From: a virus
Taxonomy: Duplodnaviria; Heunggongvirae; Uroviricota; Caudoviricetes
DNA length: 14,948 nucleotides
Reading direction: 5' to 3' (one strand)
Virus record (IMG/VR): IMGVR_UViG_2778261244_000003
Span: 1-14,948 of that record
Positions 12,901-14,948 of this stretch are shown here, piece after piece. Every line of letters begins with the position of its first letter. The first letter of the stretch is position 1. Position numbers: made by a program.

Positions 12901-14948
12901 CACTGAAGCAGGTGCCGACGTTGGTTTTGGCAGACGACGTAACTGCTCAACTATTGCTGCGCACGCCGCGCTCTGAAATTTTCGCCCCGCCGCGCTTATC
13001 AGGCTCTTACCAGCAAATGCCCCTTTGTTGGGGTGTCGCCAGTACGTGTTCACGCTGGGCGGAAAAGGCAGGATCAGCTTCATGCTTTCAGGCCTCTCTC
13101 ATGTAACCAGTGGGTTGCACGCAGCCTTGCGTTTTCCTCACCGGCAAGCAGTGAGCGGATAATCCCGACCGCCTCGCTGTCGTCGTCCTTCACCGCGGTA
13201 TGAAGCGTTATCCCCCGGGCCACGCCACGCTTTATCGTGATGACGCCTTTTTTCTCCAGTGCGCGAAGATGCTCCACCGCTGCATTCACTGAACGGTATC
13301 CCAGCATGGTTGCCACCTCCTGATTGGTTGGCGGGAAGCCACGTTCTTTCTGGTAAGAAATCAGCATATCCAGCACCTGCTGCTGGCATTGAGTTAATGT
13401 CGTCATGCCCCCATCTCCCTGACCAGTTTTTCCGCCTGCTGGCGAACCTGCGCCAGAAAGGCCTCACCACATGCCTCAAGTTCATCGCGCCCGATGTAGC
13501 TGATTGCCGGTCCCTTCCAGGTCTTGTCGAAAACAGCAATAGCACCAGCGAAGAAAGCGCCTGTCGGCACCTGCTTCTCGTCCTTCGGGATAAACCAGGC
13601 TGGCAGTTCAAAACCAATACGCCCGCGAATAAAAGCAATATGGTCTGCATCTTCCGGCCACCAAACTTCGCTGGTGGCAGCTTTGATCAGGAAAACATAG
13701 CGCCCGCCTTTATCACGCATAGCACTGGCATGTTTCATGATGTAACGCATGCCGGTGATGTATTGCCCCTCATGCTGACTGGCGCGGCTGTACGGGGGAT
13801 TACCAAAGGCAGCACCTTTAAGCTCCGCAAGACGTTCTGACCAGTCATGCGCCAGCGCGTTGTCTTCCGCAGTGTAATAAGCGGCACATTTGGCATTATC
13901 ACCATCAGTAAACAGATCCAGAACAAACGGGCCAAACAGGGTGTTAATTCCCCAGAAAATGTTGTCCGGCGTGCGCCACTGATCGCCCACTTCCTTCAGT
14001 TCATGGGCTGGTTTGTTCCGCAGCTCCACCAGCGCCTGGCAATATTTATTACTCATTAAGCCCCCACGTAATTCCCTGACAGATACCACTCTTCACCCGA
14101 TGCAGCGCGCTTGCTGCTTTTCCGTAAGCACCGCTCACGATGCGCCAGAAAATTGTTTCGTTCTGGCTGGGAGTGGCTTTCACGGAATGCCTCCATCCAC
14201 ACCGTTGCAGCTCGACGGAATAAGCCCCTGGACTCCAGTTCTTCAGCCTGGCGGGTCAGGCACAAAATCACCCGGGGGTCGTTAGTGCCGACATAGAAAT
14301 TGCGCACAGGTCTGGTTTCACGAACAGATTGTGGTTCCGGCTCCTGCGCTCTCTCAGTCAGGCGCGGGAAATGTCTGCGTGTATCTCCTTCACAACGGTG
14401 AGCCACACGCCCACTCTGACGTAACTTGCTTGCTGACTGCAGAACGCGCTGCCGTGAGTAACCAGCAAAAGCATCCGCAATGTCTCCAGAAGTACACCCC
14501 GGATGGGCTTCAATGAATTTCTGAACTTCATTCAAAAGACTCATAATCACCCCCTGAATCCTGCCGGGATCTGGCGGTAGTCCACGTTGTCGTAACTGGC
14601 TTTGAAGTACGGGTCCTCGCGTCTGGCTGCAGATACCGCAGGAACTTCCCAGGATTCTTCGAAATGACGATCCGGACCAAAGAACGTGACAGCCTGTTTC
14701 ACAAATTGTGTGCCGCTGTTACCCATCGCAGATACCCAGCCCGCGTAGCGTTTCACACCTTCCAGCATGGTTTCGGGGTTTAACCCCTCATTCAAACGGG
14801 CTTTCCAGGCTTTGAAGGCTGCAGATTTTGAATTGCCACCAGCACGTTTGGGATATGCCAGCCATGCCTGCTCAAACTCCGGAGAGTATTCCGGTCGGTT
14901 TGAACGAACTCGCACGGACTCATCAACTGATGCACCAACAGCTATTGG

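Follow-up and report, generated by a model that had tools for sequence, protein, structure and literature searches.

The 14,948-nucleotide stretch analysed here (the window; positions 1 to 14,948 of IMG/VR record IMGVR_UViG_2778261244_000003, Caudoviricetes) comes from a lambdoid prophage and encodes a small protein in which a complete LexA-type DNA-binding domain stands free of the S24 autoprotease domain of LexA and is followed by a helical hairpin of its own. We use the name LexN for this 108-amino-acid (aa) stand-alone protein. Its sequence, predicted structure and gene context suggest that LexN is a functional, RecA-insensitive DNA-binding regulator, descended from a proteobacterial LexA that was cut after the cleavage-site region.

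LexN domain architecture and constraint

The first-pass annotation of the window had placed a 108-aa open reading frame (ORF) at 13080-13406, and we confirm this ORF on the minus strand. Its translation begins MTTLTQCQQQVLDML, the protein is identical to WP_000210169.1, and the gene has 100% nucleotide identity to coding sequences (CDSs) labelled 'LexA family transcriptional regulator'. The parts of the gene and its two junctions are listed below (AF2, AlphaFold2; dN/dS, ratio of nonsynonymous to synonymous substitution rates).

13080..13406, minus strand: LexN CDS, 108 aa, ATG start (ORF list; Pfam, NCBIfam and PHROG matches)
13403..13406, minus strand: ATGA overlap of the Dam stop codon TGA with the LexN start codon ATG (sequence read directly)
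13203..13406, minus strand: LexA-type winged helix-turn-helix (wHTH), residues 1-68 (PF01726; AF2 secondary structure; Foldseek match to 3jso)
13251..13289, minus strand: recognition helix, residues 40-52 (alignments, family conservation)
13179..13202, minus strand: acidic low-confidence linker, residues 69-76 (AF2 model; alignments)
13098..13184, minus strand: family-specific two-helix hairpin, residues 75-103 (AF2; conservation; dN/dS)
13140..13145, minus strand: Ala88-Gly89 codons, aligned with the LexA cleavage site Ala84-Gly85 (alignments)
13080..13083, minus strand: ATGA overlap of the LexN stop codon TGA with the rusA start codon ATG (sequence read directly)

The Pfam profile PF01726 (LexA_DNA_bind) matches residues 1-65 over its entire length (1-65/65, E-value (E) 2.9e-19), with a score of 69 bits against a gathering cutoff of 23.7 that places the whole domain in this family. 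Over residues 1-68 of E. coli LexA the two proteins align ungapped with 35 of 68 residues identical (51.5%; BLASTP E 1e-21). The AF2 model, which has a mean predicted local distance difference test score (pLDDT) of 77.8, has the LexA topology of three helices (6-22, 28-35 and 40-52) and a two-strand wing (56-58 and 66-68), and superposes on the LexA-DNA complex PDB 3jso with a root-mean-square deviation of 0.9 A over 67 residues at 51% identity (Foldseek). The profile match thus bears out the proposal, made from the sequence alone, that the first 70 or so residues form a LexA winged helix. A PADLOC match to CARF3 (E 3.6e-4) was marginal and at the level of the wHTH, and was disregarded.

Beyond this domain the likeness to full-length LexA soon ends. 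The NCBIfam lexA equivalog TIGR00498 aligns through positions 1-91/203 only, and its score of 70.8 bits falls below the cutoff of 110.95, so that LexN is not classed as a lexA equivalog. [quoted passage not shown] Because rusA starts inside the LexN stop codon, there is no room for a frameshifted S24 remnant. The absence of an autoprotease makes RecA-stimulated self-cleavage impossible, and we infer that LexN cannot be inactivated by activated RecA (RecA*). The first-pass view of a non-cleavable protein with no S24 peptidase domain is therefore supported by the missing protease; the LexA profile match is strong, and no frame holds the decayed S24 domain of a former full-length repressor. The same annotation described LexN as translationally coupled to Dam upstream and rusA downstream, in agreement with the ATGA overlaps at both junctions; a GGAG-containing purine run lies upstream of the Dam/LexN overlap.

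The part that follows the wHTH is a module in its own right. After a linker with pLDDT <50 at residues 71-76 (AF2) and a length that varies across the alignments of the family, two helices (residues 75-87 and 93-103 in the AF2 model) form a hairpin in which hydrophobic positions 80, 82, 83, 86, 87, 97, 100 and 101 are conserved; here and below, conservation counts refer to 115 unique LexN family members. A PDB structure search returned no specific match to the hairpin, and a homology search with the hairpin only found nothing beyond fragments of LexN's own family. LexN is thus more than the short domain described initially, extending 40 residues past it with a conserved, selected helical hairpin.

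This extension contains a trace of the LexA cleavage region. In both BLASTP and HMMER alignments Ala88-Gly89 of LexN stands opposite LexA Ala84-Gly85, and the segment SEAVGIIRSLLAGEE corresponds to EEGLPLVGRVAAGEP, the linker and cleavage region of LexA, so that hairpin helix 1 looks like a remodelled cleavage-site region. The earlier statement that LexN is too short to reach the Ala-Gly position is contradicted by these alignments, although the pair itself is a vestige and not a cleavage site, as far as can be judged from the family alignment. Position 88 is Ser in 65 members and Ala in 26; at position 89, 82 members have Gly, 20 have Asp and others have Cys or Asn. Close relatives have LLANEE or LLVGEE at this site. 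A functional Ala-Gly cleavage site in LexN was considered and ruled out, the aligned pair not being conserved in the family.

The same alignment would be the main support for LexN as a cleavable decoy, with LexA, the phage S24 repressor or UmuD-type proteases cutting Ala88-Gly89 in trans, or with LexN titrating RecA*. For LexA and lambda CI, one molecule has been reported to cleave another in vitro, which gives the idea some precedent. We consider it very improbable: the pair is replaced by AN or VG in close relatives, AF2 predicts a helix rather than a strand-loop for the segment, and RecA* engages the LexA C-terminal domain, which is absent from LexN.

LexN is a real gene with both halves under constraint, evolving faster than its neighbours. 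For 65 unique genes of one LexN clade, dN/dS is 0.20 for the wHTH, 0.19 for the hairpin and 0.06 for the neighbouring rusA. An exhaustive profile search recovered full-length members down to ~40% identity with layout and length constant. Of 5426 complete E. coli genomes, 2233 carry the gene, mostly at 95-100% identity, and 2223 of these 2233 retain at least 80% of it. Being shorter than LexA and below the cutoff of the lexA equivalog, LexN might be taken for what is left of a complete LexA or CI-type repressor after decay and loss of function. Selection and conservation effectively refute such a reading, which retains next to no probability: dN/dS is ~0.2 in both halves, length and architecture hold across clades, nearly all matching genomes keep the gene, its start and stop are tightly coupled in the operon, and the window contains no S24 remnant in any frame.

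The LexN family and its SOS-box operons

At the level of annotation LexN is already known, as a PGAP 'LexA family transcriptional regulator' and as PHROG 362. The PHROG 362 profile matches in full length with the hairpin included (LexN residues 1-107 against profile positions 1-105/106, E 1.5e-59). This is LexN's own family, which contains mEp460_046 (annotated 'LexA DNA binding domain protein'), an SfV ORF and WP_000210169.1, with no sequence difference to set LexN apart. Members occur in mEp460, in Stx2a-, Stx2c- and Stx2k-converting phages and in Shigella phages. The PHROG label 'transcriptional repressor' is derived from the LexA domain, and we found no experiment behind it in the literature. 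In a genomics paper on Stx phages, a pham with pfam01726 as its only domain is given for 15 phages under the name 'LexA family transcriptional regulator', with no functional work on it. Structure searches also recovered many other stand-alone LexA-domain proteins of 65-150 aa in viral proteomes, and such proteins form a broad, largely unstudied kind. Three proteins of 160-220 aa (P0128, P0137 and P0139) carry two tandem LexA_DNA_bind domains and no S24 domain, and may be single-chain pseudo-dimers.

In the window, LexN lies in a lambdoid nin region, with the replication genes on one side and Q on the other. Among its neighbours RusA is the most constant partner. In ~80 viral contigs with a LexN 42-50% identical to that of the window (P0127 type; mEp390-type phages, Klebsiella and E. 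coli) rusA directly follows, then DUF968 and then Q, and the RusA proteins are 72-82% identical. It also directly follows in members of two further clades (L143, L147, L114 and L101). The methylase upstream is replaceable, being Dam in the window and MT-A70 plus a 75-aa ORF in another locus (L021); a Shigella locus (L002) has no methylase, and PerC stands directly before LexN.

This linkage could reflect a non-transcriptional role, with LexN as a recombination or replication accessory that targets or restrains RusA, or as a protein-binding factor acting through its hairpin. In favour of such a role, rusA directly follows LexN in the window type, the P0127 type and members of the two further clades, in many cases through an ATGA overlap, and the lambda nin region carries mainly recombination functions. 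The invariant residues of LexN, on the other hand, are those of a sequence-specific recognition helix and wing, we know of no partner requirement for RusA, and the link is not universal. We therefore rate this alternative as improbable.

The clearest exception to RusA linkage is also the clade with the most direct connection to the SOS response. It comprises 28 loci from Klebsiella-like phages (P0133/L138 type; L116-L142 and L149); an L138-type LexN matches PHROG 362 at positions 2-101/106 with E 8e-40. In 21 of the 28 the ORF picked as the downstream neighbour of LexN is DUF968, and in none is it RusA; L138 in full has LexN, a 67-aa ORF and then DUF968. In all 28, an SOS box that scores 17-30 bits (for example TACTGTTTATTTATACAGTA) overlaps promoter-like hexamers ~400-650 bp upstream of LexN. 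The box is followed either by a DinI-family gene (Pfam E 1e-23), a phrog_1813 ORF and LexN, or by the phrog_1813 ORF and LexN, and in this operon we found no strong terminator between the SOS-box genes and LexN. The arrangement suggests that in this clade LexN is a LexA-repressed gene among SOS modulators. The phrog_1813 ORF was considered as the missing S24 half of a split LexA, which was not supported (weak local BLASTP similarity to the LexA C-terminal domain, E 0.011; no Pfam match).

Several of these loci carry a second SOS box driving a UmuD-like ORF. In L138 (1837-2206) this is a 109-aa ORF (phrog_3469) that starts exactly at the post-cleavage GFPSP motif and has its own perfect SOS box and a terminator; the same ORF occurs in L129, L132, L135, L136, L139, L142 and L149. 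The co-location of LexN with DinI-like and UmuD-like lambdoid modulators behind SOS boxes fits the theme of phage genes wired into the SOS response. DinI itself has an unrelated fold and mechanism, acting on RecA filaments and not on DNA operators.

These boxes were scored with a position weight matrix (PWM) built from 21 E. coli boxes (training boxes 12.9-27.3 bits). We consider the matrix valid because it recovers the autoregulatory boxes before true lexA genes in L006-L018. In phage mEp460 (L160), which encodes LexN, it finds four strong SOS boxes: a tandem pair at the promoter of a DinI-like gene, a third within the repressor gene, and a fourth where a late-region methylase gene begins, the fourth shared with L001. 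The methylase box overlaps the first codons of a gene downstream of Q (L160 41021-41040; L001 10321-10340). The box within the S24-type repressor CDS is near-perfect, at 24-27 bits (L160 31970-31989; L002 1103; L004 996), and in mEp460/SfV-like immunity regions it is conserved while its flanks vary.

The window is different in this respect. No exact CTGT-N8-ACAG occurs in it and no site scores like a real box, so the first-pass suggestion to look there for SOS-box-like sites yielded none. One-mismatch matches number 14 against 5.1 expected from dinucleotide shuffles, an excess that probably reflects CTG/CAG codon bias. With other spacings (CTGT-N0-20-ACAG) nothing recurrent appears in mEp460 besides the N8 SOS boxes, and nothing recurrent in the window. 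Short inverted repeats around LexN in the window and in L138 provided no operator candidate.

DNA target and candidate roles of LexN

The DNA target of LexN is best approached through its recognition helix, where R38-S39-V40-N41-A42-A43-V44-E45-H46-L47 aligns with R-S-P-N-A-A-E-E-H-L of LexA. The helix-3 residues of LexA in contact with DNA are Ser39, Asn41, Ala42, Glu44 and Glu45 (PMC3091678, a secondary source), and four of these five are identical in the LexN of the window. Against E. coli LexA residues 1-84 (PDB 1lea, 3jso), LexN shares the fold and register and keeps Ser39, Asn41, Ala42, Ala43, Glu45, His46 and the wing residues Arg64-Gly65-Ile66; it differs in having Val at position 44 in place of Glu, no S24 protease/dimerisation domain, a C-terminal hairpin and expression from a phage operon. 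Across the family S39, N41, H46, K53, R64, G65 and I66 are invariant.

From these features we propose the following scheme. The hairpin would supply the dimerisation that LexA obtains from its protease domain, and the LexN dimer would bind a palindrome of LexA-like CTGT-type half-sites. In the window type, LexN would be made only after an S24-type prophage repressor has been cleaved and transcription from PR reads through, and in the sister clade of L138 type directly from a LexA-repressed promoter. By either route it would be a second-stage, SOS-coupled regulator that activated RecA cannot remove. Its target would be LexA operators, both those of the host and those on other mobile elements, on which repression would be re-imposed after LexA has been destroyed.

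The timing in this scheme follows from the gene order. On the coding strand no sigma-70-like promoter was found in 10400-14948, so that LexN, having no promoter of its own in the nin region, should be transcribed from PR as a delayed-early gene. The closest complete genome, that of E. coli O8:H8 16F5M1D1 (an LT2d outbreak strain), is 99.1% identical over 2592-14948, and its related prophage encodes a YmfK-like S24-type repressor. A master repressor of this type makes SOS-dependent induction plausible, as the first-pass annotation had assumed for the prophage and its toxin, which in the window is the type II heat-labile (LT-II) enterotoxin.

We tentatively suggest, at a little under even confidence, that LexN re-occupies LexA-type operators, standing in for LexA while the phage grows lytically or, in the dinI-linked clade, braking the SOS response. 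In its most ambitious form, which we regard as doubtful, LexN would be a RecA-proof surrogate LexA whose hairpin dimer re-occupies SOS operators and shuts down the SOS regulon of the host together with genes of rival elements under LexA control, such as colicins and the antirepressors of other prophages, while RecA is still activated. The concept has parallels in LexA (Ind-) mutants and in the LexA 1-84 fragment, which likewise have DNA-binding activity that RecA* cannot inactivate. The natural 1-84 fragment is reported to be cleared by ClpXP. These are mutant or transient host forms, whereas LexN is a stable gene under selection, with a C-terminal module of its own.

Several observations weigh against re-occupation of LexA operators. 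Position 44 is never Glu in the family (Ala in 70 members, Val in 29, Phe in 15), and at position 45 Glu, kept in 79 members, gives way to Ala in 21 and to Leu in 12, replacements that amount to ~30% of members and include the SOS-box operon clade. All LexN hosts are Enterobacterales, which share the LexA box; the loss of Glu44 and the changes at Glu45 in such hosts therefore point to an altered or diversified specificity. The PWM found no SOS-box-like site in the window (best 12.1 bits) or in the whole related prophage (L161). The dimer, too, is a step we infer from a model: a 13+11-residue amphipathic hairpin cannot bury its hydrophobic stripe alone, so dimerisation through it seems plausible, and in the monomer model the relative placement of the domains is uncertain (predicted template modelling score 0.53). 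Finally, full-text literature searches found no study of the LexN family.

Together the helix comparisons argue for a LexA-like half-site with a changed preference and some diversification between clades. The tuning of SOS induction put forward in the first-pass annotation appears constrained by the timing of expression and by the lack of phage-borne SOS boxes here: with no promoter of its own, LexN would be made after induction and not before, which limits any part in setting the induction threshold.

A different target would make LexN a phage-specific transcription factor in the manner of gp6 of phage GIL01, with its own operator, a phage promoter activated or repressed, and a role as a timing device after induction. 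GIL01 gp6 is a 66-aa truncated LexA homologue made from the LexA-repressed promoter P1, which activates the late promoter P3, where it binds a palindrome (PMC6182141). In the literature searched it is the only characterised phage-encoded truncated LexA homologue. Like gp6 of GIL01/Bam35, LexN brings a LexA DNA-binding domain to the phage and leaves out the protease, and each of the two is a candidate second-stage regulator. gp6 is produced downstream of SOS derepression; in the L138-type clade LexN, judged by sequence context, would lie behind a LexA-repressed promoter, and in the window it has neither an SOS box nor its own promoter. The two also differ in build, gp6 being a bare wHTH without a hairpin, with a recognition helix SHKTAHRYL in which Lys38 is critical, from a tectivirus of Gram-positive hosts.

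Besides this precedent, the phage-specific reading draws support from recognition-helix positions 40, 43, 44 and 45, which differ between clades as expected for diversified operator specificity, from the faster divergence of LexN (42-50% identity against 72-82% for RusA; dN/dS 0.20 against 0.06), and from the window prophage type, which has no SOS box to act on. On the other side, the spacing and inverted-repeat scans of the window, mEp460 and L138 gave no candidate operator, and S39, N41, A42 and H46 are near-invariant and identical to LexA, a conservation that exceeds what freely diversifying specificity would lead one to expect. LexN is also outside the gp6 family: BLASTP yields no alignment between them, gp6 has its best match in PHROG 3502 (1.8e-21), and LexN, with its best in PHROG 362, reaches 3502 only via the shared wHTH (4.1e-15). 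LexN resembles gammaproteobacterial LexA (51% to E. coli LexA) and gp6 resembles Bacillus LexA (44%), which suggests independent captures of a host domain. Overall we hold a gp6-like role to be rather unlikely. As to the target itself, LexA operators are the most likely one by a small margin, with a phage-specific operator nearly as likely.

SOS induction drives prophage induction, toxin release (Stx; here LT-II), mutagenesis and antibiotic tolerance, and a LexA-type protein that RecA cannot remove could alter the shut-off or breadth of the response or time phage gene expression. If LexN does act as a surrogate LexA, a hidden influence on SOS dynamics, mutagenesis and the induction of toxin phages would be widespread, since the gene sits in ~40% of the complete E. 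coli genomes, Stx- and LT-II-converting prophages included. The family would be an enterobacterial, lambdoid counterpart of gp6 with a distinct added module. With gp6 as precedent, nothing about LexN is mechanistically surprising yet, and were it merely another phage-specific regulator the finding would be of routine interest. The L138-type operon, in which an SOS box, a dinI-like gene, a small ORF and LexN follow one another, offers a concrete entry point for experiment.

The surrounding prophage

The genes around LexN, in the order of the coding strand, are as follows.

14547-14915, coding strand: ORF, first in the LexN gene order
14056-14550, minus strand: PerC/YfdN-family regulator, upstream of Dam
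13403..14089, minus strand: Dam, phage N6-adenine methyltransferase (PF05869, E 1.1e-45; TIGR01712)
12694..13083, minus strand: RusA Holliday-junction resolvase (PF05866)
11865-12707: KilA-N, downstream of RusA
10868-11863: DUF968, downstream of KilA-N
10482-10865: Q, downstream of DUF968

The last 34 nucleotides (nt) of the PerC-family gene (14056-14089) overlap the longest Dam ORF; relatives are annotated with a later Dam start (PGAP). Beyond Q lie four tRNA genes, holins, the LT-II enterotoxin A and B genes, an M15 endolysin and the terminase. The enterotoxin is encoded on the minus strand within the late lysis cassette (LT-IIA at 7494-8255, LT-IIB at 7110-7493), where the holins (8418-9075) and the endolysin (6643-7020) flank it.

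The large-terminase ORF (2437-4179) encodes 580 aa against 638 aa in the related prophage and adjoins a tail-fibre gene (1195-2412). Before position 2592 the window diverges from the related prophage, and the head and tail genes appear to be deleted, so that the prophage is probably defective for particle formation.

The four tRNA genes (9810-10119, minus strand; ARAGORN) are located between Q and the holins and have the identities Gly-TCC, Thr-TGT, Arg-TCT and a CAT anticodon, the last called Met by ARAGORN and tRNA-Ile by the annotation of the related genome. A terminator-like hairpin follows Q at 10382-10405, and the AT-rich region between it and the tRNA genes contains a 12-nt inverted repeat at 10220-10248 (TTATTATTTCTG-N5-CAGAAATAACAA).

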